The notes beneath the pieces are model-generated. The model had not been told where the DNA came from and did not search any database. It saw nothing but the letters and a program-made list of their open reading frames with translations. A program made the position numbers and the translations under genes. Shown here piece by piece: positions 33,576 through 50,299 of a stretch of 63,537 nucleotides of DNA. Source of the DNA: an uncultured Oscillospiraceae bacterium (GTDB lineage: Bacteria; Bacillota; Clostridia; Oscillospirales; CAG-382); assembly GCA_964525815.1 (NCBI GenBank), contig CAZGJQ010000001.1:1-63537 (forward strand). Reading direction: 5' to 3'. How positions within the stretch are numbered: the first letter of the stretch is position 1; each line of letters starts with the position of its first letter.

Positions 33576-33660
33576 CCGTGCTCCATTAGCGTCGGAACGA
33601 TGCGTAGCCACAGATGAAATCTGTGTTAAAGGGGTTCGGGGATGTTTCCCAGACAAGCGA

Positions 33661-33749: not shown

Positions 33750-35948
33750 CTATTCGATAGTTCTGATATAGTTCTTCAGTTTTACAATTCTGTCCTCCGT
33801 GTCAATACCATCGGGGTTTTGTGAAATAGCGAGTGTCTCGACAACGCTATCATCGTCATTGTTATAAACCACATAAGAATCGTTTTCGCATGAGATATAG
33901 GTATGAGCATAAATCAAATATTGTCCCATATCGTCTCTGGACAAATGAACATCGTCGGCTTCTTTTAAGTAAGGCATATATGTATTCTGTGACCATGCGG
34001 ATTTTGTCTGCATAATGGAGAATAAGTACGGCTTAGTATCAGCTTCATTATTGCTTAACTTGCCGAAGCTACCTGGACGAAAAACAGAATACTTTACATA
34101 GTAATAATTCCATGGATAAATCCCATCGTTCTCACACTTCGTAATAAATGCTGAGGAGATATTATCAAGTACATCATCATTGAATGTCTCATTAGTATCC
34201 AACAAAGAAATTAAAATTGTCTTTGTATTGTCAAATCCGCTATTGGCGCTTCTGTGAAAAAGCTCATTCCACGCCAACTGCAGCCGCTTAGATGCATACT
34301 GATAACGCCATTTATTTCTTTCTTGTTGCCCATAATTTCCGGTAGCCATTAATGCACAGTCAATCTTATCCCAAGAACAGGTAAAGAGAGATGTGAAGCG
34401 AGGGCCATAAGAAAGGTTTTCAAGTCCGATAATTCCAATTTGTCCATATAGCATTTCATTGTCTTCAAGTGCAAAGACTGCTTCTGCAAGGTCTGGATGT
34501 TCTTCCAAAAATTCGAGCTTCTCTTTTTCCTCTTTCAACTGATTTACATTGAAGTTGTTTTCAATGCTGTCATCAATCAAGCCAGTAAGAATAACTGCAT
34601 CGACCGCTTGAAGAATAGCGGGGATTCTATTTCTATCAAGTCTGTCGCTGACCTCATCTTCAGAATTTTGAATCAAGTTATTTACTATTCTAATTCTTCG
34701 GACAAAATCATCCTTTGATACTTCCTCCTGATGTTTCAGATATACCGTGATAGCATAAAGCAACACAATTCGGTTTAATGGGAATTGACGGATTCTGCCG
34801 GATTTATCCGAGTAGGAGTGGATGCAATCCTCAAAAATATCAATCTTGTTTCTGGAATCAACAACGATTTTTCCTGTTTCATGGGTATGGCTCATAAAGG
34901 ATGTTAGAAACTCCGTAGGATTACTATATCCATCAATAAAGCACCAACAATTAAAGAATGCTTCAAGCGTTGCGATATTGTTCAGGGTGTTTTCACCCTG
35001 TGCAGAAAAATACAAGTGAAGCAAATCGAAAACATCATTGCTGTAGCTCTGAGGTGACTCACCGTTCCGATAACAAATCATATCGCAAATGAATTTGAAA
35101 TAACGCAAAAACTTATCGTCAATGATATTGTCATCTACATCGTCATCACTTCCGTTACGATACTTCCAAAGAAGGTCTGTCCATGTCTTATCAATACTTG
35201 CAAAGATTCTGTCAGCGTTTTTTTCTCCGGTCTCTCCGTCAAGTATTCTGATTTCACGCTCCAACTCTGCTTTGAAGTGTTCAAAGAGAGTCAATGGCTT
35301 ACCACGAGAGTTCATCTTAATGTAAAGCTCATCGGTGAGTCCCATATCTTTTATGGGCAGGAAGTAAAAAGTAATAGCTTGATTCTCTAAACGCTCCCAA
35401 ATGTTTGGAACATCCTTAAAGCGTTCATTAATTGCATCCAGCATAACTAACATTGAGCTGATAGTCGGGTCTTTTTTCCAATCCAGTGGGAACCATGCTT
35501 GATTGATAATTTCCGAAGAAAGGTTGCCCTCAAATGATGGAACAAAGTCAACTAACTCTGTGCAAAAATATCTTGCACTATATCTTGTTTCATAGCTGAA
35601 TCCTTTAAGGAACTCGTATTTTTCTGCAGAAATCTTTTCTTTCTTTGCGGCGTACCAATGCAACAAGAATAGCGTGGTTAAACGCTGCTGGCCGTCCAAG
35701 GGAGTCATCGTGCCTTTATCATCGATGTCACCGTACACAAAGTCCAAGGTGATGGAATCGCCGGCAATGGCATTATAGAGAGAATCCAGAAAACGAACTC
35801 TTATTCTATTCACATCATCGTCCACACGCCCTTGAGCATAGTCACGCTGAATGAGTGGAATAGCAATTTTCTTAAGCTGAACAGGTTCTTCACCGTCCAT
35901 AAACGCAGTTTCAAATATATCAATAAATGAGCGGAGTGTTGCACCCAT
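33750..35948 (-). CDS. DUF262 (ParB-like nuclease superfamily) protein with a long uncharacterised C-terminal region
   Basis: N-terminal IPLIQRDYAQGR and DGQQRLTTLFLLHWY. No DUF1524/His-Me motif was seen in the C-terminal half. It has a TAATG overlap with the upstream gene. Confidence 0.75.
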   Translation of the reverse strand: MGATLRSFIDIFETAFMDGEEPVQLKKIAIPLIQRDYAQGRVDDDVNRIRVRFLDSLYNAIAGDSITLDFVYGDIDDKGTMTPLDGQQRLTTLFLLHWYAAKKEKISAEKYEFLKGFSYETRYSARYFCTELVDFVPSFEGNLSSEIINQAWFPLDWKKDPTISSMLVMLDAINERFKDVPNIWERLENQAITFYFLPIKDMGLTDELYIKMNSRGKPLTLFEHFKAELEREIRILDGETGEKNADRIFASIDKTWTDLLWKYRNGSDDDVDDNIIDDKFLRYFKFICDMICYRNGESPQSYSNDVFDLLHLYFSAQGENTLNNIATLEAFFNCWCFIDGYSNPTEFLTSFMSHTHETGKIVVDSRNKIDIFEDCIHSYSDKSGRIRQFPLNRIVLLYAITVYLKHQEEVSKDDFVRRIRIVNNLIQNSEDEVSDRLDRNRIPAILQAVDAVILTGLIDDSIENNFNVNQLKEEKEKLEFLEEHPDLAEAVFALEDNEMLYGQIGIIGLENLSYGPRFTSLFTCSWDKIDCALMATGNYGQQERNKWRYQYASKRLQLAWNELFHRSANSGFDNTKTILISLLDTNETFNDDVLDNISSAFITKCENDGIYPWNYYYVKYSVFRPGSFGKLSNNEADTKPYLFSIMQTKSAWSQNTYMPYLKEADDVHLSRDDMGQYLIYAHTYISCENDSYVVYNNDDDSVVETLAISQNPDGIDTEDRIVKLKNYIRTIE

Positions 35949-37660
35949 TATGCTTCCTCCTTTTCCAAAACGATAGGCTCATCCAAATAATCTGCGAGCA
36001 CGATATTTATGGCATTGACATAAGAAATTCGGTCAGCCTGTCCCCAAAAGTGGAGTTGATTATCCGCAGAAGGTGTATAGTATTTCAAGAATGCCATCTT
36101 TGTGCAGAACGGAATATACTGCCCCTTTTTATCCATGTCTACAATAACATTTCTCTTTACATCAAAAGTAGAATTGTTGAGTGCTGCGTTGTCGGCAGTG
36201 TTCAGCAAAGCAAGATTGGCAATGGAGTGCAAATACTCAGTATTACCAGATACGGAGAGCATAGCAAGAACCTTTTGCTGGATTCCCTCAAATTCAGTAC
36301 GCTCGAGTTTGGATTTATCTATGGCAGCCTGCATTTCTTCAACCAACATATCGTGGCTATGCCCTATAGATTTGACCGAAGGAATATGAAGTGCAAGCCA
36401 TTCTTTCCATACCTCTTGGGTACGCATACCTTCAGATTGCTGTGCGTGGATATGCTCCAAGCTCCAAGAAACTTTGCTGCTTTTATTATACTTAAATTTG
36501 TCGAACGGAAACCATTGTGTGTGTTCGCCGTTTTGTCTTACAGATTCAACGTTGAACAAGAACAAAAGCGTGCTTATACGCTTATATTCCAAAGGTTTTT
36601 CATAACTCAACTCAGAGTAGTTACCAGATATAGCGACACTATTTTTTATGAACCCATTGAGCATAGAGTTGAACTCGTCTTTGGTTTTGTTTTCCGACAG
36701 TTCAAAAATTTTATGTAGGGTTAAAGTATTAGACGCAATAAGATAACCAATTTTATGATAAAGTTCATGGTTCTCAAACCAGTCTTTCAAGATAAGGAAT
36801 GTCTGCTGAATCTTTCTCCAAATCTTATCCAGGGAGTTTGTATTACGCATTTCATCAAACTTAAAGAATGTGTAATACTTTTCACGAGTTGAGTCTTGTT
36901 TGCCGGAAATCAAATCAAGAACAAGGTCAATGCGTGTTTGATATTTGTTTTTAATGTTATTGGTCAAAAAATACCACAAAGAATCATTGTGTAGTTCCTT
37001 TTCGATGTTATCCCATTGCAAGGAAATTTCCTCTTGCTTTTTTCTATCCATATTGTCAGAACTGTCACGGCTGAGAAACATTGCCTTTACAAGTTCAGCA
37101 CTTGTGAGAGGAATTTTGCCTATGTTCAAGCGAGTAAACAAGGAAATAGCATCTTCGTTCTCGCCAACTTCGTACCAAATAATTTTTACATCCTCTTTGA
37201 AGTATTCAAAAATGTGCATGACGCGAATCTGCATATCCTGTTCAAACCATTTTTGAATTGTTATGTATGCATTGGCAATGAACCAAAAGTCGATGTTATC
37301 TTCCTGCTTAGACAAATCAACAGTCTTCAAAAAATCTGCAGACTGTTCTCTTGTTTCGTATGAAATAGAGAATGCAGGCTCACTAAAGAATGGGTTGACA
37401 TTCTTCATGTATTTATAGATGAGATACAGGGTTGTGAGTCTCTGCTGACCATCAACAAGCTCAAAGGCTTCGCCTCTTTTACGGACGACAACAGGCTGTA
37501 GGCAATAATTATTCTTGCCATTTTGGTAAACATCGTCCAGAAGACGAGTGACTTCATCCTCGCCCCATCTATATCCCCGCTGGTATGAGGGGACAAAAAA
37601 CTCACCCTTTATTTCTCCAACAAACTTGGTAACAAGTATTATATTGTTATTTGTAGTCAT
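35948..37660 (-). CDS. GmrSD/BrxU-like DUF262 plus DUF1524 protein (type IV restriction-like)
   Basis: Trimmed to ATG 37660 (MTTNNNIILV), 11 nt after the upstream stop. It has the DUF262 motifs FFVPSYQRGYRWG and VDGQQRLTTLYLIY, plus a C-terminal DUF1524-like SLEHIHAQQSE...NLALLNTADNAALNNSTF. Confidence 0.8.
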   Translation of the reverse strand: MTTNNNIILVTKFVGEIKGEFFVPSYQRGYRWGEDEVTRLLDDVYQNGKNNYCLQPVVVRKRGEAFELVDGQQRLTTLYLIYKYMKNVNPFFSEPAFSISYETREQSADFLKTVDLSKQEDNIDFWFIANAYITIQKWFEQDMQIRVMHIFEYFKEDVKIIWYEVGENEDAISLFTRLNIGKIPLTSAELVKAMFLSRDSSDNMDRKKQEEISLQWDNIEKELHNDSLWYFLTNNIKNKYQTRIDLVLDLISGKQDSTREKYYTFFKFDEMRNTNSLDKIWRKIQQTFLILKDWFENHELYHKIGYLIASNTLTLHKIFELSENKTKDEFNSMLNGFIKNSVAISGNYSELSYEKPLEYKRISTLLFLFNVESVRQNGEHTQWFPFDKFKYNKSSKVSWSLEHIHAQQSEGMRTQEVWKEWLALHIPSVKSIGHSHDMLVEEMQAAIDKSKLERTEFEGIQQKVLAMLSVSGNTEYLHSIANLALLNTADNAALNNSTFDVKRNVIVDMDKKGQYIPFCTKMAFLKYYTPSADNQLHFWGQADRISYVNAINIVLADYLDEPIVLEKEEA

Positions 37661-37671
37661 ACTTTCCCGCC

Positions 37672-38079
37672 CTAAAGTTCTTTCAATCGTTCCAACCATT
37701 TTTGGATGCTACCATCTTTGAAAAAGCCAAGCAACGCACCGTCGCAAAATCGTTCAGCGCGGACAGCGCCCATAATCAAAGCCATTATACATTGAGCATC
37801 CAATTTTGAAACATCTGCGTCGCTCATGGATTTACTTCCCCATTCAAGCCCGTTTTGGTTCAAAACATCACCATATCTTGTCAGTTCGAAATCGCTATTC
37901 TTATCGCTGAAATCGTACACATCATCGATAAAGTGATGAACCATTTTGGAGTAGTTTACAAAAGGCATCTGAATAGGGCATTCCGGAGTGCCATCATTTT
38001 TATGGTCGATGGCCCAAGTGCCAAACTTATCTTCATCCAGATGAGGAAGATACTTTGTCAGATTTTCAAATTTACTCAT
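37672..38079 (-). CDS. DUF6508-like protein (family recalled from memory)
   Basis: Trimmed to ATG 38079 after AAGGAGG. It has PECPIQMPFVNYSKMVHHFIDDVY and a C-terminal RAERFCDGALLGFFKDGSIQKWLERLK. Confidence 0.6.
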   Translation of the reverse strand: MSKFENLTKYLPHLDEDKFGTWAIDHKNDGTPECPIQMPFVNYSKMVHHFIDDVYDFSDKNSDFELTRYGDVLNQNGLEWGSKSMSDADVSKLDAQCIMALIMGAVRAERFCDGALLGFFKDGSIQKWLERLKEL

Positions 38080-38227
38080 TTTCAACCTCCTTACCTTCCT
38101 CAAAAGTTGTGTCAATGCCTATAAGCTCCTGGACTTATTGACATTCCACATATTCGAGAGCTTTCAGACCAATCATAGAATTTTTCGTAATGATCATCCC
38201 AAGTCACCACCGACCCACGCTTTCTGG

Positions 38228-38887
38228 TTATTTGATTTCCCACACAAAGGTAGCGGTGTCGCTCACATCAATGTCATCGGGCTGGATATCCATATCAGCC
38301 ATTGCTCTCATTGGCATAGCCATAACTCTTTCTTCAAGCATATAGTCTGTGCGAGAAATAATATTGAGTTCGCCCCAATTATAATCAAGGGTAAGCAGGT
38401 CACCCAGTTCCACATCGGATGCTTCACACAGGACTTTTGCTTTTTCTCGTGCATTGATAGTAGCAGACTTCAAAAGCTCCTTATTAACTGCAGACGGGTC
38501 TTTCACCGTAAAGGCGATAGAAAGCTCCGGCTTCGCAAGGGATTTTGAAATAGCACTAAGTGTTTGAGCCAAACGCTTTGTATCGAAGTCAAATTCAACC
38601 TTTAACCGATGGCTACACACATAACCGCTGAATACGCTCTTATAATTCCCGTTTTTATTCTTAACACTCTCGTAGGCGGTGCGGACATTGAAGCTTGTAG
38701 TCCTCACTGATTTCTTCTCAAAGCCAACAGCTTCAAGAGAGACGTTAAGGTAATCAATCTGCTGTGCAGCTTGCTCCATCGTTTCTTCGTATTCCATACC
38801 TTGTGCTTCAAGGTTCATGGACACGACAACATAATCGGGAGCAGTCTTTACATTTCCCATTCCTTTGACTGTAATTGTTCTTGGCAT
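38228..38887 (-). CDS. SIMPL (DUF541) domain protein lacking a signal peptide
   Basis: It begins MPRTITVKGMGNVKTAPDYVVVSMNLEAQG, the first beta-strand of SIMPL domains, directly with no hydrophobic leader. ATG 38887 lies 7 nt after GGAGG. Confidence 0.7.
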   Translation of the reverse strand: MPRTITVKGMGNVKTAPDYVVVSMNLEAQGMEYEETMEQAAQQIDYLNVSLEAVGFEKKSVRTTSFNVRTAYESVKNKNGNYKSVFSGYVCSHRLKVEFDFDTKRLAQTLSAISKSLAKPELSIAFTVKDPSAVNKELLKSATINAREKAKVLCEASDVELGDLLTLDYNWGELNIISRTDYMLEERVMAMPMRAMADMDIQPDDIDVSDTATFVWEIK

Positions 38888-38901
38888 AGTCATTCCTCCC
38901 G

Positions 38902-41900
38902 TTATAATGATTTCATCACATCAAGCAAACGCTGATAGCTATCAACATCGTGATATTTTACATTCTCCGTGGAAATCTCATTAAAGAGTTTTCTTGCACA
39001 AGAGATTTTGGCTTTTTCAATGGGCCTCATGCTAAGGCTTTCCATTGTTCCTTTTGTTTCTGCAATAAAGAAGATGTGCTTTACTGTACCCTCGTTAAAT
39101 GCAATCGCCCAGTCGGGAGAGTAGTTGCCAACCGGAGTAGGAATATGGAATCCTCTCGGCAGCTTAGCATAAACACACACTTCATCGGCGTTATCCAAGT
39201 CCTCTGCGAATCGGCGCTCCACGCTCTTTTCTGCGTAGCCGTCAGTAAATACATAATCTTGAATATGCTTAGTCGCCTTAAACGCCTTATCGATGCTTGC
39301 CGATGTTTTTTCTGCGGTGAAGATAGTGCTGTCATATTCGCCCTCGATTTGGTCGTAGGAGATATGCTCGACAATCATTGTAGCTTTCTGCTCGTTAATT
39401 AGACGAACAACCTTGGCGATAAATTCTTCGGGGTTCGCCTTGTACATGGCAAACTTCAAAGGCGAGATGCCCTTGATAATCTCAACCACAGTCTTACGGG
39501 TGAGAACAGTGCCCTCCGCAATCTTTCCAACAAGGTCATACTTGATATGGCTTACTTCGCCTCGTTTGAGAGTGGTTGTACGGGTCTTTGCAGTCTTAAA
39601 CGCCTCGCCACGCTCCAATGCGTTTGTGCTCATTTCCTCGGTCTGTTCGCCCTTGGAGACGGTGTAGGTCAGCTCGGAAACGAACAGCTCCTTGTCGATA
39701 TGTTCGATAGCCTTTTTAATCAGCTCTGAGCTTTCAAAGGAAACGGCGTAGGCATATTTGTGATTGATACGCTTCCAAAGCTCTTGGAACTCCTGCTTAT
39801 GGAAGTTCTTGTTAAGCTCGTTCTTTTCAATTTTGGTCTGCTTGCCGTCATCAATCATACGAGCAAGAGCGGATTCATCAAAGATGGCCTGCACGAGGGT
39901 ATGTACCCCCTCTGCCATAGGAGCAAGGCTGCCGGGCATAGGAGCAAGCGTACCCATTTCCAAATCCATGCGGTACTTGTCCGTAACCTTTCTATCCATA
40001 TCCACATAGCTGTTCTGAATCAGATAGAACTCAATATTACTTGCAGTCTTTTCATCAATGGCTATAGGCTTGCCGTCTACCTTGACGAACTTGCCCTTAA
40101 AGTAATCGCTGGTAGCAGCGGTCGGGCGGTCGTATAGAACCTTCTTGATGTCGGATTGCAAATCCGCAACGAAGCCCTTATAACTTTCACTTGCGATAAC
40201 CGTCAGCTTGTTGATGTTGTGGATGCTCTCGCCGAGAACCTCCATATCCATTCTGTTACCGACCTGGTTGACACAAAGACGGAGACCACGTCCAACTTCC
40301 TGCCGCTTCTGCGTGGAGCTGTCGCTATGTTTTAGCGTACAAATCTGGAACACATTGGGGTTATCCCAGCCTTCACGCAGAGCCGAGTGAGAGAAGATAA
40401 ATCTTGTCGGCTCGCCAAAGGAAAGCAAGCGCTCCTTGTTCTTCAAGATAAGGTCATAAGCGGAAATATCATCCGAGAACTCAGAGCCACGCTTGAGGGC
40501 AGAGTTCACGCTATGACCGGTCTTCTTGTCGATACTGAAATAGCCCTTGTGGGTATCAGCGATTTCAATCTCTCGCAAATACTTCTGATACGGCGTGTCA
40601 AACATTGTCAGATATTCGTTGAGAATGGCGGTGTATTCTTCTTCAAAAATCTTTCCATATTCACCGAGTAGCTCGTTGCCGTCCTCGTCATACCGGCGGT
40701 ACTTGGCAACCTCGTCAATGAAGAACAAAGACAGGGTTTTTATACCCATTTCAAACAGCTTTTCTTCTTTCTCAAAGTGAGATTGAATGGTCTCTCTTAT
40801 TTGGATACGGCGCATATCCTGCTCAACAATATCGCCGATAACCTCGCCTTGGTGGATAACGGTGCCGCCTGTGAATGTCACAGTACCGCTAAGTGGCTCA
40901 ATGTCGGAGATAACATAGCCGTTCTTATACTGCTCCATTTCGTTTGATTTGTAGTAGAGGTCATCGCCCACGGCAAAAGTAAAGAGTTTTCGTGCGTGAC
41001 CTGCGTTCTGTGCAACCTCGATTTCCAGTTTTGCCATAGGCGGCTTGTTCGGGGACAGAATAATATTTTCAAGATAGAGATACTTGCTCGTGCCGCTGAG
41101 GTTCTTAACCTCAAAGCCCTTGACCTCAATCTTCTTAACGAGCTTTTTGTTAAAGGCATCCAGAGCATCCAGTACATACACAAGGTTGTGCTCCTTGGCA
41201 TGGGTAGCCGAATAGTTCAAGCTGAACAGAGGATTGAAGTTTTTGAGCGCCTTTTGTGTAACTTCGCCGCCCATTTTCTGCGGCTCGTCCAGAATGATGA
41301 TAGGTCTGTTCGCCTTGATAACATCAATCGGACGGCGAGAGCCGAACTCATCACGCTTGGAGTAAATAATGCGGGCTTCCTTGCTTTTTCCGTCCTCTTT
41401 CAAGGAGGAAGCGAAAGCCTGGGTATTGATAATCATGACATTGATACCGGAGCCGGATGAGAAGTTGTCAAGCTCGTTGAGGTTAGAGCTGTTGTAGATG
41501 AAGAAGCGGGCCTTCTTGCCGTACTGCTCCATAAAGTGGTCGGCGGTAATCTGGAAGGTCTTATTGACCCCCTCACGGATAGCAACGCTCGGCACAACGA
41601 CAATGAACTTGCTCCAGCCGTAACGCTTGTTCAGCTCAAACATGGTCTTGATGTAGACATAGGTTTTGCCCGTGCCGGTCTCCATTTCGATATCAAGAGA
41701 GCAACGCCCGATGTTACCAATGAGCTTGTCCGAGGTCTTGATATTGTTCTCGCTTTGTATGGCACGGATGTTTTCAAGCAACTGAGCGTCGGTCAGCTCG
41801 ATAGCTTCATTTTTATAGCCGGTGTCGCCCATGATATCGTCGTCATCATTGAGCATGGCAAGCTGCATCTGCTGATTTGGCTGGAGCTTGCCCAGGTCGC

Positions 41901-42003
41901 GGATATATGTAGTCCGGTCGTAGTTGGGCTGCCCGTTAAATACACGAACAATCGCCTCCACGGCTTCGGTTTGATACTGCTGTATCTTGAAATTGAATTT
42001 CAT
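38902..42003 (-). CDS. res: Type III restriction enzyme Res subunit
   Basis: Trimmed to ATG 42003 (MKFNFKIQQYQTEAV) after GGAGGAG. It has helicase motifs METGTGKTYVY and ILDEPQKMGG, plus a C-terminal PD-(D/E)xK (YSPDWAIAF...FIAETKG). Confidence 0.9.
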   Translation of the reverse strand: MKFNFKIQQYQTEAVEAIVRVFNGQPNYDRTTYIRDLGKLQPNQQMQLAMLNDDDDIMGDTGYKNEAIELTDAQLLENIRAIQSENNIKTSDKLIGNIGRCSLDIEMETGTGKTYVYIKTMFELNKRYGWSKFIVVVPSVAIREGVNKTFQITADHFMEQYGKKARFFIYNSSNLNELDNFSSGSGINVMIINTQAFASSLKEDGKSKEARIIYSKRDEFGSRRPIDVIKANRPIIILDEPQKMGGEVTQKALKNFNPLFSLNYSATHAKEHNLVYVLDALDAFNKKLVKKIEVKGFEVKNLSGTSKYLYLENIILSPNKPPMAKLEIEVAQNAGHARKLFTFAVGDDLYYKSNEMEQYKNGYVISDIEPLSGTVTFTGGTVIHQGEVIGDIVEQDMRRIQIRETIQSHFEKEEKLFEMGIKTLSLFFIDEVAKYRRYDEDGNELLGEYGKIFEEEYTAILNEYLTMFDTPYQKYLREIEIADTHKGYFSIDKKTGHSVNSALKRGSEFSDDISAYDLILKNKERLLSFGEPTRFIFSHSALREGWDNPNVFQICTLKHSDSSTQKRQEVGRGLRLCVNQVGNRMDMEVLGESIHNINKLTVIASESYKGFVADLQSDIKKVLYDRPTAATSDYFKGKFVKVDGKPIAIDEKTASNIEFYLIQNSYVDMDRKVTDKYRMDLEMGTLAPMPGSLAPMAEGVHTLVQAIFDESALARMIDDGKQTKIEKNELNKNFHKQEFQELWKRINHKYAYAVSFESSELIKKAIEHIDKELFVSELTYTVSKGEQTEEMSTNALERGEAFKTAKTRTTTLKRGEVSHIKYDLVGKIAEGTVLTRKTVVEIIKGISPLKFAMYKANPEEFIAKVVRLINEQKATMIVEHISYDQIEGEYDSTIFTAEKTSASIDKAFKATKHIQDYVFTDGYAEKSVERRFAEDLDNADEVCVYAKLPRGFHIPTPVGNYSPDWAIAFNEGTVKHIFFIAETKGTMESLSMRPIEKAKISCARKLFNEISTENVKYHDVDSYQRLLDVMKSL

Positions 42004-43298
42004 GTATTTGCTCCTCCTTCCAAGTAGAGAATAGCTACAGAAATCAAGGCAAGGCAACGCCTGTAAAAATAGTCGTATTGCCTGTTATCTATAATATCAA
42101 TCTTGGTCGTTTCATGATGACGGATTCTGAAACTATTCCCTATGTTGGTTAGGGCCTTAAACTCTGCTTCATACATAGATTTGAAGTTCGGCTCAGAACA
42201 ACTCATGTCGTCAATTATTTTATTTGCGGAATGTGCCTTGTCGAGTGCCGGAGAATAATACGTTTTCAGCCGTTCAAACGCATCCCAAAGCTTTTCTACA
42301 GCGATTTGCTTATTGCTATCGTGATAGTAGCGTTCAGCTTCGGTAACAAGTTCCTTTAACCCCATTTCCGATATAGACGATATCTCATTCTTGCTAATGG
42401 ACACATCAAGCGTGTTTATGAGACGACCTTGTTCAAACTTGTAATTGATGGAGTTCAGTTTGAATAATGCATTTAACTGCGCTGCAAATGCTCCTTCTGA
42501 GTTGTAATTCTCGTATAGTTCCAACGCATCAAAAACATAGAACGGAGAGTTCTTTAAGATGAATTGCTTCATATCATTAGTCTCTACATAGTTCCCGGAA
42601 GCATCATAGCATTTAGGGGTGTAAAACTGCGAGAGGTCTCGAAAAACGCATTCACTTGTGGTTATTTCGTATTGCCAACCTGTCTCATCGGTTTCCCTAT
42701 AAACTGTGGTGAATTTTTCGAGCAATGCACATAATTGGCTTCGCATCTTCATAGTCAAGGAAAGTTTCAACCGTTTGGATTTAATATCAGTTTGGTTTCT
42801 TTGAGAAAATGGTATAAACAAAGCTGTTTCCTCTGGATTATACTTCTTCCAACCATAAACATCACGACCAGATATTTTGCTTTCGGGATACAACTCATAT
42901 CCGTCATTGCGAAGCAAGCCGTTTACAGCATCGAGAAACTCTTTCCAATATCCATTTTCAACTCTCACAGCCGGATGAAATGAAGCACAAAGGAATTTGA
43001 GAAGCACCTCGTCATCGCCATCAAGAAGCTGGAACCTTTCATCTTCAAATACCCAATCATCCTCATAGTCGTTGTTGTTGATGGTGTGCTGCCAGATGTC
43101 ACCCTCTGCGTTATCAAAACGACTATCGAAGCTTGGTAAGGCAGATAAATCGTATAGCCGCTTTAGAAAATCCATTTCGCTCAATTTACCGTAACAAGAG
43201 CATTGGATTCTCTTTGATTCCCAAAATTCCTGCACGTCCATACCGTATTGAAACAGAGCGAAAATATCCCGTTTGGTTATTTCGGTAATCTGTTTCAC
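42000..43298 (-). CDS. AbiJ-N-terminal-domain-like protein with an uncharacterised C-terminal domain, inserted between mod and res
   Basis: A GTG start lies directly after the mod TAA, with AAGGAAGGTG upstream. The N-terminal pattern FLKRLYDLSALPSFDSRFDNAEGDIWQHTINNNDYEDDWVFEDERFQLLDGDDEVLLKFLCASFHPAVR matches what I recall as AbiJ-NTD4. The C-terminus has IGNSFRIRHHE. Confidence 0.65.
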   Translation of the reverse strand: MKQITEITKRDIFALFQYGMDVQEFWESKRIQCSCYGKLSEMDFLKRLYDLSALPSFDSRFDNAEGDIWQHTINNNDYEDDWVFEDERFQLLDGDDEVLLKFLCASFHPAVRVENGYWKEFLDAVNGLLRNDGYELYPESKISGRDVYGWKKYNPEETALFIPFSQRNQTDIKSKRLKLSLTMKMRSQLCALLEKFTTVYRETDETGWQYEITTSECVFRDLSQFYTPKCYDASGNYVETNDMKQFILKNSPFYVFDALELYENYNSEGAFAAQLNALFKLNSINYKFEQGRLINTLDVSISKNEISSISEMGLKELVTEAERYYHDSNKQIAVEKLWDAFERLKTYYSPALDKAHSANKIIDDMSCSEPNFKSMYEAEFKALTNIGNSFRIRHHETTKIDIIDNRQYDYFYRRCLALISVAILYLEGGANT

Positions 43299-45254
43299 TT
43301 AGAGCACCTTCCTTACTGTCGAAGGACTGATAGAAGCAAAAATTTGGTCGAAGTTTGTCAGCACCGAGTCGCTTGCCATTCCGCTGTCACGGAACACGGC
43401 GTAGTAGGGCTGCTGCTTTGCAATAGTCGTAACAACATCGTCGGAGATGTTGTTGTCAAAGCAGGCATACAAAAAGCCGTCTGCAACATTGAACACCTTG
43501 CAGCCGTTGATAGTAGTTTCCTCAATCTTGGAGGAAAGGAGCACACCGAGGTCAAGCATAACCTGAAACAGCAAATCTTCGGGAGTTCTCTCCTCTTTGA
43601 TGTTGCTGGCGTAGTTGTCAAAGGTGGCCTGCGCAACCTCGTCGGGCTTGTAGAACACTTCCTTCATGTTGGATGTGTCGCATTTGAGCACACGGAAGCC
43701 TGTGTCAAGGTTCTGTGCCGTCAAGCCGTTTTCTTCTTTGATTTTTGCGCCTGCACGGCGGATGCGTTCTTTGCCGATTTCGCAGATGTTTTTGTAGCCG
43801 GCCTTGTAAGCCTCGCTTTTTTCGTCGGTTTCTTCGGGGATTTGCACCATGATGAATTTGCGTTTGCCCCCGTCCTCGGCGTTGAGCTGCATGACTGCGT
43901 GGGCGGTGGTGGCAGAGCCGGAAAAAAAGTCCAAAATTGTATCACTGCCAGAAGAAAGCATATTCATCATGTAAGTTATGACATCAACAGGTTTCACATT
44001 TTCAAATACTCTAACACCATTAAATAAATCTTGAACGCATTGTGTGCCTACATTATATATACTCATCATTTCTTTGGGGATTAAAGTAGAAGGAGCCCCC
44101 ATAGCTTCTCCCAAATATTTTTTGATGTAAATATTCCAATGAGCTTGTTCACCGTTTGCAGATACTAGAGGGCCCGTTGTGGTCTTTTTGAATGTGACCA
44201 TATTATCCTTTAACACTTCATCGAATTTCGGACGAATAAAGCGATATATATATCCGTCCTTTGGATATACAACTTCACCATCGGGACACTCTATACCATA
44301 TTTTTGATTAACATTGGTAGATTTATTCTTAAACACAAAGTCCTTATCACGATATAGTCCTCTATCGTCTTTTTGCGTGTACATTTTGATTGCATCAGAA
44401 GACAGCGGTGCATATATTGTGTTCAAATCATTTTTATTCTTAGTGTACACAAGAATATACTCATGTGTTTTACTTGCGAACTTTGGTCTAATTCCACCTG
44501 CCGTAGAACAGTTCCAGATAAAGCAGTTTACTAGATTATCTTCACCAAAAATGTCATTGCAACATTTTTTCATGTTTTCGATTTCATTATCATCAATGCT
44601 TATTACGAGAACACCCTGGTCGGAGAGTAAGTCTTTTGCCAGTCTAAGGCGAGGATAAATCATATTAAGCCAATCAGTATGAAAACGACCGTTGCTATCG
44701 AGGTTTTTTACAAGGCGGTTGCCCTCATCATCAAACTGCCCGCTGTGTTCCATGTATTCATCGGTGCTTTGGGCAAAGTTATCCTCATACACAAAATCGT
44801 TGCCCGTGTTATAGGGCGGGTCTATGTAAATCATCTTTATTTTGCCAAGGTAGGTTTCCTGTAAGAGCTTCAACACCTCAAGGTTATCACCCTCGATATA
44901 GAGGTTTTCAGTTGTTTCAAAGTCTACACTTCCGCTGCTGCAATAGGGCTTGCCGCTGCTGTCTGCTCCTGTAGGAAATTCTTCATCATCACGAACCGGG
45001 CGCAGGGTTTTGGCAATGGGAGTATTGGCAAGCAAAACAGACTTCTTCTTGTCCGGCCATGTAAATTGATAGCGCTCCTCCTTGCCCTCAACAACCTTGA
45101 CAGAGATTTCCTGCATCAGCACATCCTTGTCAATAGCACGGACAACCTCGCCGTTCTCGTCAATAGCCTCCGTGACAGCGTTGGGGAACATAGCCGCCAA
45201 CGCTCTGAAATTATCATCGGCTTTGTTCGCCGTTTGCATTTTAAGTTTATCCAT
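43299..45254 (-). CDS. mod: Type III R-M Mod subunit (N6-adenine DNA methyltransferase, beta class)
   Basis: Catalytic IDPPYNTGNDF lies upstream of the AdoMet motif DFFSGSATTAHAV. GGAGGA is 8 nt before the ATG. Confidence 0.9.
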   Translation of the reverse strand: MDKLKMQTANKADDNFRALAAMFPNAVTEAIDENGEVVRAIDKDVLMQEISVKVVEGKEERYQFTWPDKKKSVLLANTPIAKTLRPVRDDEEFPTGADSSGKPYCSSGSVDFETTENLYIEGDNLEVLKLLQETYLGKIKMIYIDPPYNTGNDFVYEDNFAQSTDEYMEHSGQFDDEGNRLVKNLDSNGRFHTDWLNMIYPRLRLAKDLLSDQGVLVISIDDNEIENMKKCCNDIFGEDNLVNCFIWNCSTAGGIRPKFASKTHEYILVYTKNKNDLNTIYAPLSSDAIKMYTQKDDRGLYRDKDFVFKNKSTNVNQKYGIECPDGEVVYPKDGYIYRFIRPKFDEVLKDNMVTFKKTTTGPLVSANGEQAHWNIYIKKYLGEAMGAPSTLIPKEMMSIYNVGTQCVQDLFNGVRVFENVKPVDVITYMMNMLSSGSDTILDFFSGSATTAHAVMQLNAEDGGKRKFIMVQIPEETDEKSEAYKAGYKNICEIGKERIRRAGAKIKEENGLTAQNLDTGFRVLKCDTSNMKEVFYKPDEVAQATFDNYASNIKEERTPEDLLFQVMLDLGVLLSSKIEETTINGCKVFNVADGFLYACFDNNISDDVVTTIAKQQPYYAVFRDSGMASDSVLTNFDQIFASISPSTVRKVL

Positions 45255-46128
45255 TATCCTGTTCCTCCGTTTCCTTTACTGGAAATATCGTCTTTAATTC
45301 AAGGGCAATTTCTTCGGCAGTCATAGCCGCCGTTGTCATAGCCTTTCTATCGGCAATCATCGGGCTATATTCCACCACTTGTTTTTTCGTTAGGTCATGC
45401 CAAATGGGAAGGATTGTTTTCCCGTTCACCGTTTCTAACTGAAACAGAGCGTTTAGCTCAGTCTTTGTCCAATATTTATGTTCCGCTATATAATTAGGTG
45501 ATAAAACCACAATACCATATCGAGATTTTCTCAATCCGTTGTCTATTCGTTCTCTCATTGAATCTCCCCATTGCAGGCGTTGAGTATCATACCAAACCTT
45601 GAAGCCAATTTTCTCCATTTCAGCAACAAACTCATCAACAAAAGACTCTTTATCTTCAAAAGCGTGAGATACAAAAACATCATATTCTTCGCTTGTGTCA
45701 CTAATGGTATCAGTCAGAATAGTCGGAGCTAAGCTTGTTGTAACTCGCTGCCGCAATTCAGCAATTCGGGCTTCATAAGCAGACTGAACTTGCTTGCTCG
45801 CCTTGTCTTGCTTTTTCTGGTCAGCCTGCTGTGCCTTTTGCAACTTCAAATACGCATCATTACGCTTATTCCTTTTGTCGGAGATTTTCTTGCCCAAGTC
45901 TGCACTTTCGCCAGACCTTTTTGCATAGTCACCCTGCCACCCCGAAATCTGTTTCAATTTGCTCGATGCCGTAGTAGCAGATGTGCTTTTTGTTATGCTT
46001 TTTTGAGTGCTATTGATTTTCCCTTGAAGATTAGCACAGTCTTTATCTTTAGCCGCCTTTTTCTTTTCAAGGTCAGCTATTTCTTTATCAAGCGTATTAA
46101 CTTGTCTTTGATATTGGTCAATTGACAT
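45247..46128 (-). CDS. Coiled-coil plus TIR domain protein
   Basis: The first roughly 148 aa are K/Q/A-rich and coiled-coil-like. The TIR domain begins YDVFVSHAFEDKESFVDEF...GIVVLSPNYIAEHKYWTKTELNAL. It has an ATGA overlap with DUF4391 and an 8-nt overlap with mod. Confidence 0.8.
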   Translation of the reverse strand: MSIDQYQRQVNTLDKEIADLEKKKAAKDKDCANLQGKINSTQKSITKSTSATTASSKLKQISGWQGDYAKRSGESADLGKKISDKRNKRNDAYLKLQKAQQADQKKQDKASKQVQSAYEARIAELRQRVTTSLAPTILTDTISDTSEEYDVFVSHAFEDKESFVDEFVAEMEKIGFKVWYDTQRLQWGDSMRERIDNGLRKSRYGIVVLSPNYIAEHKYWTKTELNALFQLETVNGKTILPIWHDLTKKQVVEYSPMIADRKAMTTAAMTAEEIALELKTIFPVKETEEQDNG

Positions 46129-46733
46129 CAGACCACCTCTAAATCTTTCTTCAACTTATTTATCTGCTGCACCATCTCAAACTTTTTGTTCGGCTGTTTT
46201 TCTGTGCGGGCTTGTTTTTCAAGGCGGTCAATCTCTTTTTGTAGTCGCTGCCGTTTATCATCAGCCGCAATCTGTTCATCAAGGGTGTTTTCGCCCTCTA
46301 TCTCTACTCCGCCCACCTGCACGACTATATTTTCCCATACGGCATCGAGGGTTAAGCCCTTTAGCGGCAATTCGAAGGAGTTTTTCGGCTTCCATGGGGT
46401 CTGCATCAACCTTGTGTGATAAATGGCAAGTTTATGTTCATTGCCGCATTCTAAAACAAACAACATATTCTGCTCTATTAGCTTTGACAATGTGGCGATT
46501 GTGCTCTCAGCAAAGTCTTTCTTTTTAAGCATCGCCTGCACCACAAAAAAGGTTTTAACCTGCTGCCCCTCAGGGATCAGTATCTTAGCGGGCGACACTT
46601 CGTTTACAATGATGATTTTTGAAATATCGGCATCAATCTTTTCTTTTGCTGCCGTGTTCATCTGGAATTTTGAATATATCGCTTTCTTGGGGAGCTGCTT
46701 GTGCAGCTCCGTTACCTTTGGAAGTCCTAACAT
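46128..46733 (-). CDS. DUF4391 domain protein
   Basis: A 201-aa protein with FFVVQAMLKKKDF...MLFVLECGNEHKLAIYH, as I recall for DUF4391. That family is typically adjacent to SNF2 helicases and methyltransferases. Confidence 0.65.
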   Translation of the reverse strand: MLGLPKVTELHKQLPKKAIYSKFQMNTAAKEKIDADISKIIIVNEVSPAKILIPEGQQVKTFFVVQAMLKKKDFAESTIATLSKLIEQNMLFVLECGNEHKLAIYHTRLMQTPWKPKNSFELPLKGLTLDAVWENIVVQVGGVEIEGENTLDEQIAADDKRQRLQKEIDRLEKQARTEKQPNKKFEMVQQINKLKKDLEVV

Positions 46734-46737
46734 GCGC

Positions 46738-49700
46738 TCACCTCACCACTAAAAAGCATATCAGCTCAAAATCGTCTAAGCCTTTTATCTCGCCGGATAA
46801 AAAGCTAACCTGACCGCCGCCTAAAAAACTGTCAATGTCGTTTTCTTCCTTAACATCAATAATGGAATTGATAGCCTCGGAGAGAAGCTCGGAAATCTCA
46901 CTCATGTCACGGCCGTCTTCGGTTTCATCATTAAAACGGTGATACAGCTCCTCAATAGGCTTGTCCTGCCCACGGCATACAAAACGCATGATGTCAAGCA
47001 TTTTCTTGGGCTGGAGATAGTCGCAAACGACTTCGCCCTCATCGCTTACATAGACCATGTAGAACGGATGAAGTCTATTTTTGTTGTCAATGTTGATGCT
47101 CTGGGCACGGTTTTTCAAAACATAAATAACCCCCGGAGGGCAATCAGCAGAGGCAGGAGCAACGGCGTGAAGTCCCATAGGGGTGCGCTCCAGTTCGGGA
47201 TGCCGCTTGATATAATCGAGCAAATCCAGACGAAACTCGTTAAGTCCCAAGTCCATAATGGATATACCGGTTGACATTTCCTCAATATCAACCACTTCTT
47301 CTTGCAACCGTTGGAGCTGTGCTTTGCGGTATTCGAGGTCGTTCTTTTCTTCGTTGGAGAGGATATTATCGTCGCCGGTGGCGGTCATATCCACAATCTT
47401 CATTCGGGTCTCAACCTTGGATTTCAGATTGATATATTCGTCAAGAGTAATATCGGGCCAGAAGTTCACAAGCTGAATCACCTTATTTTTGCTGCCAATA
47501 CGGTCAACACGACCAAAACGCTGAATAATCCGGACAGGGTTCCAATGTATGTCGTAGTTGATAACATAGTCGCAATCCTGCAAGTTCTGACCTTCGGAGA
47601 TACAGTCGGTTGCGATCAAAATATCAATAGCGGTCTTGTCACCAGGCATCAATAGCTCTTTGTCCTTTGAAACAGGAGAAAAGCAGGTCAGAACCGTGTT
47701 CATGTCTGCCTTTTTAAGCTTAGCCGTTGTACGCCCCTCAACAGAGCCGGTGATAACAGCGGTGTGTAGGCCGAACTTTTTCTGCATATAAGGAGCGACA
47801 TTATCATAGAGGTACATTGCCGTGTCGGCGAAGGCAGTAAAGATAATAACCTTTTTATTGTCCTCATTGCTAGAGTGTTCAATCTTATTTCTGAGATCAG
47901 CCAAAAGCACCTGCAGCTTGTTGTCGTGCTCTGGTGTAATATCGTCAACCATGATGGTGAGCAGCTCCAAAATATCTTGGTCTTTTGCCAGCTCTGCTCG
48001 CCAAGAAATTCTATCCATATCGGCAAGGTCGATCTGGACCTTTTTGCCGATAGATACAAACTCATCACCATTTTGGTCATCAAGGTCGTATTCATCAGCA
48101 TTGGAGATGTCAGTAAGGTCGATTTTGGCACCGGTGGTGCATTCATAACTATCAATTGTTTTTATGGTCTCATCAATTATCCCCTTAATTCTGCGAAGCG
48201 TAAGGTTAAAGGAGAAGACAGAGCTTTCCATACGCTTCATAAGGTTTATTGCCATGAGGCGGCGAATACCAAGCTCACGGTTGGATTGAGTAAACCCTAC
48301 ATTTACTTTATTATCTCCGTACATCTCTGCGTACTTTTCCATACGGCTCGGCAGTATGTAGTGAGATGGACGGTAAATATCCAGATTGAGCTTTGCAAGC
48401 TGCTCAAATATTTCATTGTAGCTAATTGCATCCTTCAGGTCGGTCAGATGAGGTCTGTGAGACTTGGGAGGCAATCTTTCGGGGAACTTACCTATAGCGG
48501 TGGTGTCGTAGTATTTTTCAATATGTTTTCTGGAACGAGCGATTGTTACGCTGTCAAGCACTTCAAAAAAGTCAAAGTCCAACATCCTGAGCAAATTATC
48601 GGTAGTGCGGTCGCAAGGGTCCCACTTGCTCCATGTGTTGAACGCTTTTTGTGCGTTTCTGAAAATCTCATCAATAGTGTGAGAGGTTTTTAGCTTGTTA
48701 TCCAGCTGCTTAGAGTCACCCTCATAGGCGAGCTGAAGCTGATTCTTCAAATCGTTGAAACGGGTATTGACGGGCGTTGCAGACATCATAAGCACCTTTG
48801 TCTTTACGCCTTTACGAATAACCTGCTTCAAAAGTGTAGTGTAGCGATTATCTTTTTCGTCATCTTCCTTGTCCAGCTTACCGCCGTTTCGGAAGTTGTG
48901 GGATTCATCGATAACAACGAGGTCATAGGTATCCCAGCGCAGACGAGACAAATCCGTGCCGTTAGATGTGCCGTTAGTACGCCCAAGGTCGGTATGATAG
49001 AGAACCTTGTAGTTCAAGCGGTCTTCTGCGAGAGGGTTGTTGATATAGTTGTCACGATATGTATTCCAGTTGTTTGAGAGCTTCTTTGGGCAAAGAACAA
49101 GAACACTCTTGTTTCTGGTTTCGTAATACTTAATTACCGCCAAAGCAGTAAATGTCTTACCAAGACCAACAGAGTCGGCAAGAATACAACCGTTGTATTT
49201 TTCAAGTTTATTGATAATTGCAAGAGCAGCATCTCGCTGGAAGTTAAACAGCATACCCCAAACCTTGCTGTCCTTAAAGCCGGTGGCTTCATTAGGCAGC
49301 GTATCTTCGGATACATCATCCAGAAACTCATTGAAAATATTAAACAGCGTAATGAAGTAAATAAACTCTGGCGAGTTCTCATTATAAACCGCCGTGATAT
49401 TCTCAACCACTTGGTCAGTTACATCCTGGAAATTCTTCTTGTCGTTCCAAAGCTGTTCAAAGAGGTCTATGTAGCTTTTGCTCATCGGGAACGATAATCT
49501 CTGCGTGAAGTTATAGGCATAATTGCCACGCTCACAACCAAGGTCAACGGTGGTGAACTCGTTGAACGGCATATATGTGTATTGGTCCTTCTCATTCATA
49601 ACATTGAGGAATCCGGGCACTACCTGGCTGGTCGTATTGGATTTGAATGTTGCCTTTTGTTTAATCCATTCCGCACACTCTTTTGCAATAGCTCGTTGTG

Positions 49701-50004
49701 TCAGCTCGTTGCGGAGACGAATTTCAAACTCTGTACCATAGAGGTTTTGCTCACGGGTCATACGAGGAATGTAAAACTCACGCTTGGATTTCTCAGCCTT
49801 GTCCATCGTGAAAGTAGGAGAGGTAAAAATGAACTGTAAATCCTCAATACCGGAAAGGTTCTTCTTCAATTCCTCATAAGCATAGATAGAAAAGCAGACC
49901 GCTGCGATTCTCAGCTTGCTTTTCTTTGTAATTGTCTCTGATAAATCATCACGAACCCGTGTATTGATATTATCTATCATCTTTGGCATCGATATTGCTT
50001 CCAT
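46738..50004 (-). CDS. SNF2-family helicase (1088 aa)
   Basis: Motif I ILADSVGLGKTFTA, motif II VVIDESHNFRN, motif III MSATPVNTR and motif VI QRFGRVDRIGS. GGAGG lies 8 nt before ATG 50004. The N-terminal roughly 250 aa were not assigned. Confidence 0.9.
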   Translation of the reverse strand: MEAISMPKMIDNINTRVRDDLSETITKKSKLRIAAVCFSIYAYEELKKNLSGIEDLQFIFTSPTFTMDKAEKSKREFYIPRMTREQNLYGTEFEIRLRNELTQRAIAKECAEWIKQKATFKSNTTSQVVPGFLNVMNEKDQYTYMPFNEFTTVDLGCERGNYAYNFTQRLSFPMSKSYIDLFEQLWNDKKNFQDVTDQVVENITAVYNENSPEFIYFITLFNIFNEFLDDVSEDTLPNEATGFKDSKVWGMLFNFQRDAALAIINKLEKYNGCILADSVGLGKTFTALAVIKYYETRNKSVLVLCPKKLSNNWNTYRDNYINNPLAEDRLNYKVLYHTDLGRTNGTSNGTDLSRLRWDTYDLVVIDESHNFRNGGKLDKEDDEKDNRYTTLLKQVIRKGVKTKVLMMSATPVNTRFNDLKNQLQLAYEGDSKQLDNKLKTSHTIDEIFRNAQKAFNTWSKWDPCDRTTDNLLRMLDFDFFEVLDSVTIARSRKHIEKYYDTTAIGKFPERLPPKSHRPHLTDLKDAISYNEIFEQLAKLNLDIYRPSHYILPSRMEKYAEMYGDNKVNVGFTQSNRELGIRRLMAINLMKRMESSVFSFNLTLRRIKGIIDETIKTIDSYECTTGAKIDLTDISNADEYDLDDQNGDEFVSIGKKVQIDLADMDRISWRAELAKDQDILELLTIMVDDITPEHDNKLQVLLADLRNKIEHSSNEDNKKVIIFTAFADTAMYLYDNVAPYMQKKFGLHTAVITGSVEGRTTAKLKKADMNTVLTCFSPVSKDKELLMPGDKTAIDILIATDCISEGQNLQDCDYVINYDIHWNPVRIIQRFGRVDRIGSKNKVIQLVNFWPDITLDEYINLKSKVETRMKIVDMTATGDDNILSNEEKNDLEYRKAQLQRLQEEVVDIEEMSTGISIMDLGLNEFRLDLLDYIKRHPELERTPMGLHAVAPASADCPPGVIYVLKNRAQSINIDNKNRLHPFYMVYVSDEGEVVCDYLQPKKMLDIMRFVCRGQDKPIEELYHRFNDETEDGRDMSEISELLSEAINSIIDVKEENDIDSFLGGGQVSFLSGEIKGLDDFELICFLVVR

Positions 50005-50086
50005 GTTTTCAACCTCCGCCCGGCATCGTAGTTTTTCTGTGGTGCCAGAACCATTTTATAAAATTAGCTGTACGATAAAACGGACA

Positions 50087-50299
50087 TTACGCTTTGTCCG
50101 TGCGTACAGCTTCACAAATATCCCCTATGTCACAATCCAAATACTCACAAATACGCAACAGAATAGAAAGGGCTACTTCTTCTCCCTTGTTGAGTTTACT
50201 CATAGTACCTGTCGCAAGCTGCAAGTCTTTGCGTAGCTTGGGTTTAGAAATCTCTTTTTCAATAAGCAGTACCCAAAGTTTCTTATAACTAATTTTCAT
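50087..50299 (-). CDS. Small XRE/Cro-type HTH protein heading the defence island
   Basis: A 70-aa protein with KDLQLATGTMSKLNKGEEVALSILLRICEYL, an HTH_26/YozG-like motif. SD GAAGAGG lies upstream. Confidence 0.7.
   Translation of the reverse strand: MKISYKKLWVLLIEKEISKPKLRKDLQLATGTMSKLNKGEEVALSILLRICEYLDCDIGDICEAVRTDKA

Follow-up and report, generated by a model that had tools for sequence, protein, structure and literature searches.

Gene content of the block

The subject of this work is a block of 11 tightly packed genes (33750-50299, minus strand) on an integrative and conjugative element (ICE) of an uncultured Oscillospiraceae bacterium (GenBank assembly GCA_964525815.1, contig CAZGJQ010000001.1). 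The window denotes the whole 63,537-nucleotide (nt) stretch of this contig that was analyzed. An open reading frame (ORF) listing combined with start-codon inspection bore out the gene coordinates of the initial annotation, which had been made from the DNA letters without database searches, and Pfam recovered every domain named there, including that of the HTH gene at the head. The chosen start codons agree with independent gene calls on metagenome copies that are 99.9% identical to the block.

The first gene encodes a 70-amino acid (aa) HTH_26 protein of the Cro/C1 type (50087-50299; Pfam, 4.9e-18). It is followed by a 1088-aa SNF2-family ATPase (46738-50004; Pfam SNF2 and Helicase_C), a 201-aa DUF4391 protein (46128-46733; Pfam, 5.4e-31), a 293-aa protein with a coiled coil and a TIR domain (45247-46128; Pfam TIR_2, 3e-18; PADLOC PDC-S66), a 651-aa type III Mod methyltransferase (43299-45254; Pfam N6_N4_Mtase; PADLOC MTase_III), a 432-aa protein with AbiJ_NTD3 and NTD4-like regions (42000-43298; Pfam AbiJ_NTD3, 8.4e-54), and a type III Res protein (38902-42003; 1033 aa when started at the ATG at 42003; Pfam ResIII and RE_endonuc; PADLOC REase_III). 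SNF2, DUF4391, Mod, and Res are core genes 1 to 4 in what follows; the TIR and AbiJ-like genes are the cargo of slots 1 and 2. Four tail genes complete the block. They encode a 219-aa SIMPL (DUF541) protein (38228-38887; Pfam, 2.6e-37), a 135-aa DUF6508 protein (37672-38079; Pfam, 8.2e-15), a 570-aa GmrSD-like protein with DUF262 and DUF1524 (35948-37660; Pfam GmrSD_N and GmrSD_C), and a 732-aa protein with DUF262 only (33750-35948; Pfam GmrSD_N alone). The last two are called GmrSD1 and GmrSD2.

Most junctions are as first described. SNF2 and DUF4391 are separated by 4 nt, TIR and Mod overlap by 8 nt, the TAA of Mod abuts the GTG of the AbiJ-like gene, and the AbiJ-like gene runs into Res through an ATGA overlap (42000-42003). 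Res is followed after 14 nt by the SIMPL ATG at 38887, which has ribosome-binding site spacing; DUF6508 and GmrSD1 are 11 nt apart, and GmrSD1 and GmrSD2 share a TAATG overlap. The DUF4391/TIR junction at 46128 had been described as an ATGA overlap, but the letters there are TGATG (GTC-TGA-TG), an overlap of 1 nt. The 148-nt gap between SIMPL and DUF6508 (38080-38227) is present, and 82 nt separate the HTH and SNF2 genes.

Searches with PADLOC and NCBIfam models found no named system that covers the gene content and arrangement of the block, in agreement with the initial annotation. The NCBIfam matches were all below threshold (DrmD, 152 versus 610 bits; type III endonuclease NF012027, 382 versus 564 bits for Res). 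PADLOC models returned nothing for the DUF4391, SIMPL, and DUF6508 proteins or for the second DUF262 protein. A DNA search with the block matched nothing in E. coli genomes; in plasmids, the only match was 88 bp long, and the DUF4391 protein had none there by tblastn.

Conservation of the core

A DUF4391 profile was used to collect 80 loci from contigs of one genome per species; most are gut Clostridia, and a small number are Negativicutes, Spirochaetes, and Bacteroidota bins. ORFs were called in these loci and labeled with the proteins of the window; in all, 178 loci were fetched for comparison. SNF2, DUF4391, Mod, and Res are all present in this order in 52 of the 58 loci with enough flanking sequence, in a sample of ~80 species. 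The median pairwise identity is ~77% for SNF2 and Res and ~57% for DUF4391 and Mod. SNF2, DUF4391, and Res have mutually correlated identity matrices (rho 0.62-0.71), whereas Mod correlates more weakly (rho 0.30-0.48). These data fit a core whose genes are passed on together, with additional recombination in Mod. A sample anchored on Res contained the same operon in two cases; the third was a Mod and Res pair (Res 80% identical) with no trace of SNF2 or DUF4391, so the Mod-Res pair is separable from the other two genes. SNF2, DUF4391, Mod, and Res, which the initial annotation had singled out, are the conserved core of a restriction-modification (R-M) operon.

Two slots and their cargo

The core is interrupted at two positions, slot 1 between DUF4391 and Mod and slot 2 between Mod and Res. 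Slot 1 is occupied in 59 of 70 loci and slot 2 in 52 of 63 (~84%); both slots are empty in only 4 loci. In the window, mod and res keep their order and strand on either side of the 432-aa gene. Counting both slots, the SNF2-DUF4391 interval, and the position downstream of Res, the 80 loci contain 209 cargo proteins that fall into 131 clusters. Nearly every cluster with more than one member is limited to a single slot.

Most of the cargo is of the defense type. Pfam matches in slot 1 are TIR (15 of 80), DUF4365, DUF6680, ThsB_TIR, KAP NTPase, RES, AAA_13, AbiH, SIR2 with HerA, and Schlafen, and those in slot 2 are AbiJ_NTD3/4, RhuM, Abi_C, nucleoside deoxyribosyltransferase, DUF3644/EC042_2821, Fic, and GNAT. 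PADLOC matches include spbK, HerA, PifA-like, and QatA-like models and the candidate families PDC-S05, S20, S23, S32, S66, and M50B. Many other cargo proteins match neither Pfam nor PADLOC. Core-cargo junctions are tight, with medians of -1 and -4 nt. Co-orientation with the core holds for 103 of 107 embedded ORFs (96%).

Cargo turns over independently of the core. The nearest core neighbor carries other cargo in 46 of 50 comparisons for slot 1 and 48 of 52 for slot 2, including pairs with 93-95% identical SNF2 and Res. We did not detect co-adaptation of the core with shared cargo; between loci that share cargo and loci that do not, DUF4391 identity was 58.1 versus 58.0% and Mod identity was 55.9 versus 56.2%. 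Random stacking of accessory genes, which a gene neighborhood comparison had been proposed to reveal, is not what these loci contain. The stacking is not random, with fixed slots that are ~84% filled with defense-type genes.

In one locus (L029, 10625-16820), slot 1 contains an unbroken run of six co-oriented genes, and a slot can therefore hold multi-gene inserts of ~6 kb.

The TIR and AbiJ-like cassettes of the window

The slot-1 protein matches PDC-S66, a published candidate family, in full length (8.4e-98; residues 1-282 on model positions 1-280 of 282). Its TIR domain keeps the glutamate of the W-x-x-x-E-L motif, and this glutamate and the surrounding residues are invariant in 11 homologues of 46-84% identity. 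Family membership suggests NADase activity. The match to the ThsB model is partial and confined to the TIR domain. A metagenome scan gave 80 loci with TIR homologues of 58-73% identity. The order DUF4391, TIR, Mod was found in 48 of them, 9 had Mod downstream but another gene upstream, and ~20 had no core gene nearby, which places the family outside the scaffold as well. TIR and AbiJ-like genes occur together about as often as expected by chance (2 loci versus ~1 expected in the genome set; 3 of ~50 TIR-bearing loci).

The slot-2 protein consists of a variable amino terminal half and a conserved carboxy terminal helical domain with an invariant FRIRHHETTK. The AbiJ_NTD4 score is 31.9 bits, just under the 34-bit cut-off, and the carboxy terminal half matches the PADLOC candidate PDC-S32, a family defined from other host systems. 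The AlphaFold2 (AF2) model is good for residues 160-428; a fold search with the whole chain was uninformative. Identity as an AbiJ/HEPN protein was dropped, since the sequence has no Rx4-6H motif and no Abi_C Pfam match, and hhalign against the Abi_C cargo gave a probability of 0.5%. Homologues of ~70% identity or more, sampled in 6 places, all occupy slot 2 and overlap Res by the same 4 nt. The slot-1 genes ahead of them differ, namely TIR, a RES domain gene, and two unknowns.

Two of the loci (L175 and L176) have an identical 433-aa AbiJ-like protein in slot 2 and differ in slot 1, which encodes an unknown 295-aa protein in one and a RES-domain protein in the other. This combination is a sign of very recent shuffling. 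In one of these loci, a further gene lies between SNF2 and DUF4391.

The sister ICE and the tail genes

The closest comparison comes from a sister ICE (L081). It is 94% identical to the window in nucleotide sequence through ImpB, YolD, HTH, SNF2, and most of DUF4391, and again in Res, SIMPL, and DUF6508. A 742-aa AAA_13 gene of the PrrC/RloC type replaces TIR in its slot 1, and its slot 2 is empty. The similarity stops 48 nt before the DUF4391 stop codon, and the break points of the slot-2 cassette are exactly the Mod stop codon and the Res start codon. The center of Mod (~43931-44534) has no detectable nucleotide similarity to the sister gene, whereas both ends are 86-89% identical; the center looks like a swapped target-recognition region. 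In a second related ICE, slot 1 holds AAA_13 and slot 2 holds Abi_C, and the tail genes are absent.

Several metagenomes contain the complete gene set at 99.9% identity, and no locus outside these near-identical copies keeps it. Among the 178 loci, SIMPL, DUF6508, and the two DUF262 genes were found only in the ICE lineage of the window (L081, L083, and L084), with the exception of one SIMPL gene downstream of Res in L074. The two GmrSD-like genes of the sister ICE differ from those of the window. The initial annotation had left two options, an undescribed system of 11 components or a tight stack of several systems. The former is contradicted by the other cargo in the nearest relatives, and the latter is upheld by independently assorting TIR and AbiJ-NTD cassettes and by four lineage-confined last genes.

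The Pfam match of the SIMPL protein starts at residue 7, with no amino terminal extension before the domain. The 570-aa GmrSD-like protein has DGQQR at residue 70, a marginal GmrSD_C match (24.8 bits versus a cut-off of 23), and amino terminal PADLOC matches to HEC-06, Orf5, and SspE; no (D/E)H[IVL]xP motif was found in the protein. It is a candidate type IV, modification-dependent nuclease. The 732-aa protein has DGQQR and DUF262 but lacks DUF1524.

In a near-identical copy (L084), the island is 99.9% identical from 50690 down to 36128. The similarity ends inside the YolD-like ORF (50690), and the genes upstream are unrelated (AHSA1, acetyltransferase).

Domains of the core proteins

The SNF2 protein has a Walker A motif (GLGKT, residue 280) and a DESH motif (residue 366), and its first 250 and last 200 residues have no assigned domain. 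Its full length matches an unnamed PADLOC model, C3a139 'HKD+Snf2' (1.7e-130), but the HxKxxxxD (HKD) motif of the model label was not found in it. About a quarter of the SNF2 relatives end in a YAcAr/SLOG domain that the window protein lacks. Relatives of ~1204-1221 aa, which are ~125 aa longer than the window protein, make up 18 of 66 full-length sequences (e.g., L025, L040, L054, and L069). The extra residues are carboxy terminal in 4 of the 4 examined, and both extensions that were scanned are YAcAr/SLOG domains (PF10686, 2e-15). In Thoeris, a SLOG-type fold reads signals made by TIR proteins. Such TIR-SLOG signaling was rejected for the block, since the window SNF2 has no SLOG domain and SLOG-bearing SNF2 proteins are not enriched with TIR cargo (3 of ~45).

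Two metagenome copies of the island with 99.9% identity (L083 and L085) carry a G>T change at SNF2 codon 1018 (window position 46953) that converts GAG to TAG (E1018*) and removes the last 71 residues. The L084 copy and the window are intact.

DUF4391 lies downstream of SNF2 in related loci, either directly or after an occasional inserted gene. A PUA-like ASCH domain (47% identical) is fused to the amino terminus of SNF2 in some relatives (L166-L169) and to the carboxy terminus of DUF4391 in others (L011, 9992-11104; L036, 5070-6194); both DUF4391-ASCH loci examined lack downstream Mod and Res. Because the same domain is fused alternatively to either protein, a Rosetta-stone pattern, SNF2 and DUF4391 are likely to act together. 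At 50% identity, the relatives of DUF4391 form 1131 clusters. A profile search of PDB sequences was negative. No functional literature on DUF4391 was found; the term matched a genome-comparison table and a misprint for DUF7941, and a search by COG number gave nothing relevant.

Mod (PF01555, 7.7e-34) matches PADLOC MTase_III (PDLC03634, 3.6e-216) in full length over residues 1-649. Res combines an SF2 ATPase (ResIII, 1.7e-14) with a carboxy terminal endonuclease of the PD-(D/E)xK type (RE_endonuc, 3.2e-29) and matches PADLOC REase_III in full length (1.6e-290) from residue 19 of the long ORF.

An HTH_26 homologue immediately precedes SNF2 in the same orientation in 27 or more of 66 related loci, and the gene is also annotated in L081, L083-85, L166-169, and L173-177. 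It is the probable controller of the operon.

Flanking signals and neighboring genes

A near-consensus promoter-like site (50361-50389, minus strand) with an extended -10 element (TTGCAA-17-TGnTATAAT) is located ~62 nt ahead of the HTH start codon and is the likely start of the operon transcript. The site is a consensus match only, and promoter-like sites are not enriched over the whole region (39 found versus 37.1 expected from shuffles). The terminators that had been placed on both sides of the block are real hairpins. The upstream one (50481-50522, minus strand) resembles an intrinsic terminator, with an 11-bp stem and a U-run (-18.6 kcal/mol, z = -4.4), and closes the upstream ImpB/YolD unit. 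At the 3' end, two strong hairpins (33557-33584, z = -4.6, and 33661-33699, z = -5.3; strand not assigned) lie between the convergent GmrSD2 and relaxase genes, and the former was called the stronger of the two. A stem-loop in the 82-nt HTH-SNF2 spacer (50005-50110) overlaps the HTH stop codon and has a 7-bp inner stem and an outer stem (z = -2.3). It may act as an attenuator or have no role at all.

The block is AT-rich, as had been noted, with a GC fraction of 0.39-0.47 compared to 0.50-0.52 in the ICE backbone, but the AT-rich zone is not confined to the block and extends to ~55 kb. The flanks belong to a Firmicutes conjugative element and include a relaxase, DUF3848/DUF3849 genes, a MutS_I/SNF2 protein, YolD, and ImpB. 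The MutS_I/SNF2 protein, with its helicase domain, is 2917 aa long (21329-30082, plus strand) and is encoded beside the DUF3846/3848/3849 and relaxase genes; related ICEs (L166-L168) have the same giant gene. Between ImpB and the Peptidase_M78/HTH genes is a 500-aa minus-strand ORF (52514-54016) with no Pfam match, and the segment around it (52472-54028) has no counterpart in the sister ICE and marks another variable spot in the element.

Discussion

We consider the block to be, most likely, a conserved variant of a type III R-M operon with two slots of exchangeable defense cargo and a lineage-specific tail. Its layers probably share one transcript, as judged from the DNA itself. In the first layer, the HTH_26 gene, the probable controller, heads SNF2, DUF4391, Mod, and Res. 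By family membership, Mod would methylate host sites and Res would cut unmethylated incoming DNA. SNF2 and DUF4391 probably form a joint accessory module, which is suggested by their near-invariant adjacency, their divergence in step with Res, and the alternative ASCH fusions. In the second layer, the DUF4391-Mod and Mod-Res positions carry exchangeable single-gene cassettes, here the TIR and AbiJ-NTD proteins. The cargo proteins are most likely self-contained second-line effectors of the abortive-infection type that act independently of the core. Residence in the operon would give them co-expression and co-transfer with the R-M genes, and homologous recombination in the conserved flanking genes would replace them. 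The third layer comprises SIMPL, DUF6508, and the GmrSD-like pair. The published rationale for GmrSD-like proteins beside methylation-based systems is that such proteins attack modified DNA missed by the first system, and the pair is expected to do the same for DNA that escapes the R-M core.

Several points weigh against this reading. The loci were baited with DUF4391 or TIR and are mostly from gut Clostridia, so the locus frequencies are biased, and their ORFs were called by a simple longest-ORF method. The role proposed for SNF2 and DUF4391, a DNA translocase or sensor that would extend or regulate restriction, is a guess. The first 255 and last 220 residues of SNF2 gave no Pfam match at E <= 5 other than one chance-level Cas6_N hit, and a 41-sequence profile of these end regions had no match among PDB sequences. 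The AF2 model of DUF4391 is poor (pLDDT 66), and its fold search against the PDB returned nothing below E = 0.1. Among the 6 places sampled, no AbiJ-like homologue of ~70% identity or more was seen outside slot 2, so for this gene independence from the core is presumed. Slot fidelity and ~84% occupancy could stem from functional docking and not from recombination history alone.

A rival explanation is a guard model of the PrrC type, in which the Mod/Res or SNF2/DUF4391 complex holds the TIR and AbiJ-NTD proteins inactive until a phage anti-restriction protein disables the complex and they fire. The block would then be one integrated two-layer system whose cargo is still exchangeable. The presence of AAA_13 (PrrC/RloC-type), RhuM, Fic, and Abi_C cargo argues for this model, because the same classes are found with PrrC-like guards in operons of type I R-M (PMC3710099), as do the start/stop overlaps that couple cargo to core genes, the fidelity and high occupancy of the slots, and the finding of AbiJ-like genes only in slot 2. 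On the other hand, TIR homologues occur free-standing, the core exists with empty slots, and the same cargo families are embedded in unrelated hosts (the PDC families of BREX, DISARM, and type I R-M). DUF4391 and Mod are no more alike between loci that share cargo, which gives no sign of co-adaptation. A guard relation between core and cargo is possible, with its positive support coming from the layout, but we regard the model as unlikely. Equally doubtful is the broader proposal that SNF2-DUF4391-Mod-Res is an unrecognized, cargo-carrying class of type III-like systems whose slots are docking positions and whose occupants, functionally tied to the core, stay latent under the control of DUF4391/Mod/Res until restriction is blocked. 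If it were true, hundreds of unrelated effectors would share one activation logic.

A single new multi-component system could be formed by all 11 proteins, or by SNF2, DUF4391, TIR, Mod, AbiJ-NTD, and Res at the least; in it, for example, a nucleotide signal made by TIR would be read by another component. Single-strand packing, translational coupling, the recovery of the full set at 99.9% identity in several metagenomes, and the SLOG-type domain on some SNF2 relatives would agree with such a machine. Chance-level co-occurrence of the TIR and AbiJ-like genes does not, nor does the lack of SLOG on the window SNF2 and of any enrichment of SLOG variants with TIR cargo. The sister ICE, which keeps core and tail with neither TIR nor the AbiJ-like gene, the cargo differences between nearest neighbors, and the lineage restriction of the tail genes largely refute the idea, and we give it very little weight. 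The slots could also be a passive genomic sink, that is, tolerated insertion sites for selfish or decaying cargo that brings no benefit and has no defense role. High cargo turnover, cargo that is not obviously defensive (IS200 transposase, GNAT, and WapI), and the many proteins with no Pfam match are what a sink would produce. A sink would not explain cargo ORFs that are intact, co-oriented (103/107), and start/stop-coupled, the enrichment in known defense families, or the invariance of the TIR catalytic glutamate and its surroundings across 11 homologues, and this explanation is hardly credible.

The variant operon with exchangeable cargo is a new host scaffold for embedded defense genes, and it is widespread, ICE-borne, and composed of type III Mod-Res with SNF2 and DUF4391 in gut Clostridia. 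The 131 cargo clusters in 80 loci amount to a list of candidate anti-phage genes from a phylum with few tested defense systems. The contribution of SNF2 and DUF4391 to the type III enzyme is now a defined question. The 94%-identical ICE pair, which differs in cargo and in the Mod recognition region, is a natural experiment on cassette exchange.

Two bodies of work provide the context for these data. Anantharaman et al. (2013, PMC3710099) described HEPN, PrrC/RloC, RhuM, and Fic genes in R-M operons and used PrrC/EcoprrI as their worked example. Guilt-by-embedding in Hma, BREX, DISARM, and type I R-M operons is the source of the PDC families (Payne, Hughes, Fineran, Jackson 2024, bioRxiv 10.1101/2024.01.29.577857). 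The initial annotation missed both the published embedding in defense operons and the PDC-S66 membership of the TIR gene. As in Payne et al., very diverse cassettes of extra defense-type genes are nested between the genes of a system based on DNA modification, their content varies between close host systems, and some embedded families also occur non-embedded. Co-orientation is nearly the same (96.7% in Payne et al. compared to 96% here), and the block shares families with that study, PDC-S66 over the full length of TIR and PDC-S32 in the carboxy terminus of the AbiJ-like protein. The host differs, being type III R-M with SNF2/DUF4391 here. The two fixed slots share almost no cargo families, and occupancy is ~84% compared to 62.7% for Hma.

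The window resembles classical type III R-M (EcoP15I/StyLTI) in that Mod is upstream of Res, both are full-length PADLOC matches, and the pair also occurs alone. It differs in that the pair is almost always preceded by SNF2 and DUF4391, mod and res are usually split by an inserted gene, and the window Res scores under the NCBIfam equivalog cut-off; the activity of the pair is predicted. The likeness to PrrC lies in an abortive-infection effector gene inside an R-M operon and in the AAA_13 (PrrC/RloC-type) genes in slot 1 of sister loci. The PrrC host is type I rather than type III, and the window cargo is TIR and AbiJ-NTD. Control of PrrC latency by the R-M complex has been demonstrated, whereas the window is likened to it from gene layout.

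DISARM, BREX, and Hma also combine a methyltransferase with an SNF2-family ATPase in one operon, and the window SNF2 has partial matches to DrmD, BrxH, and HmaA. The block lacks DrmA/DrmB/DrmC, PglZ/BrxC, and the DUF499 ATPase and has a classical type III Res nuclease. DISARM was rejected on the DrmD score (152 bits, cut-off 610) and the absence of DrmA, DrmB, and DrmC from the block. Hma was rejected as the HmaA match is limited to the helicase C-lobe (2.5e-24) and there is no ATPase partner. Thoeris was rejected as the ThsB match is partial and no ThsA-like gene is present in the block. BREX with BrxU (pEFER) is similar in placing a methylation-based system beside GmrSD-like DUF262 proteins. 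In the window, these genes are downstream rather than embedded, they form a pair with one member lacking the DUF1524 nuclease domain, and the similarity to HEC-06 is amino terminal only. We found no published description of the SNF2/DUF4391/type III scaffold. The novelty lies in the SNF2-DUF4391-type III scaffold and in how its cassettes behave, not in an 11-part machine.

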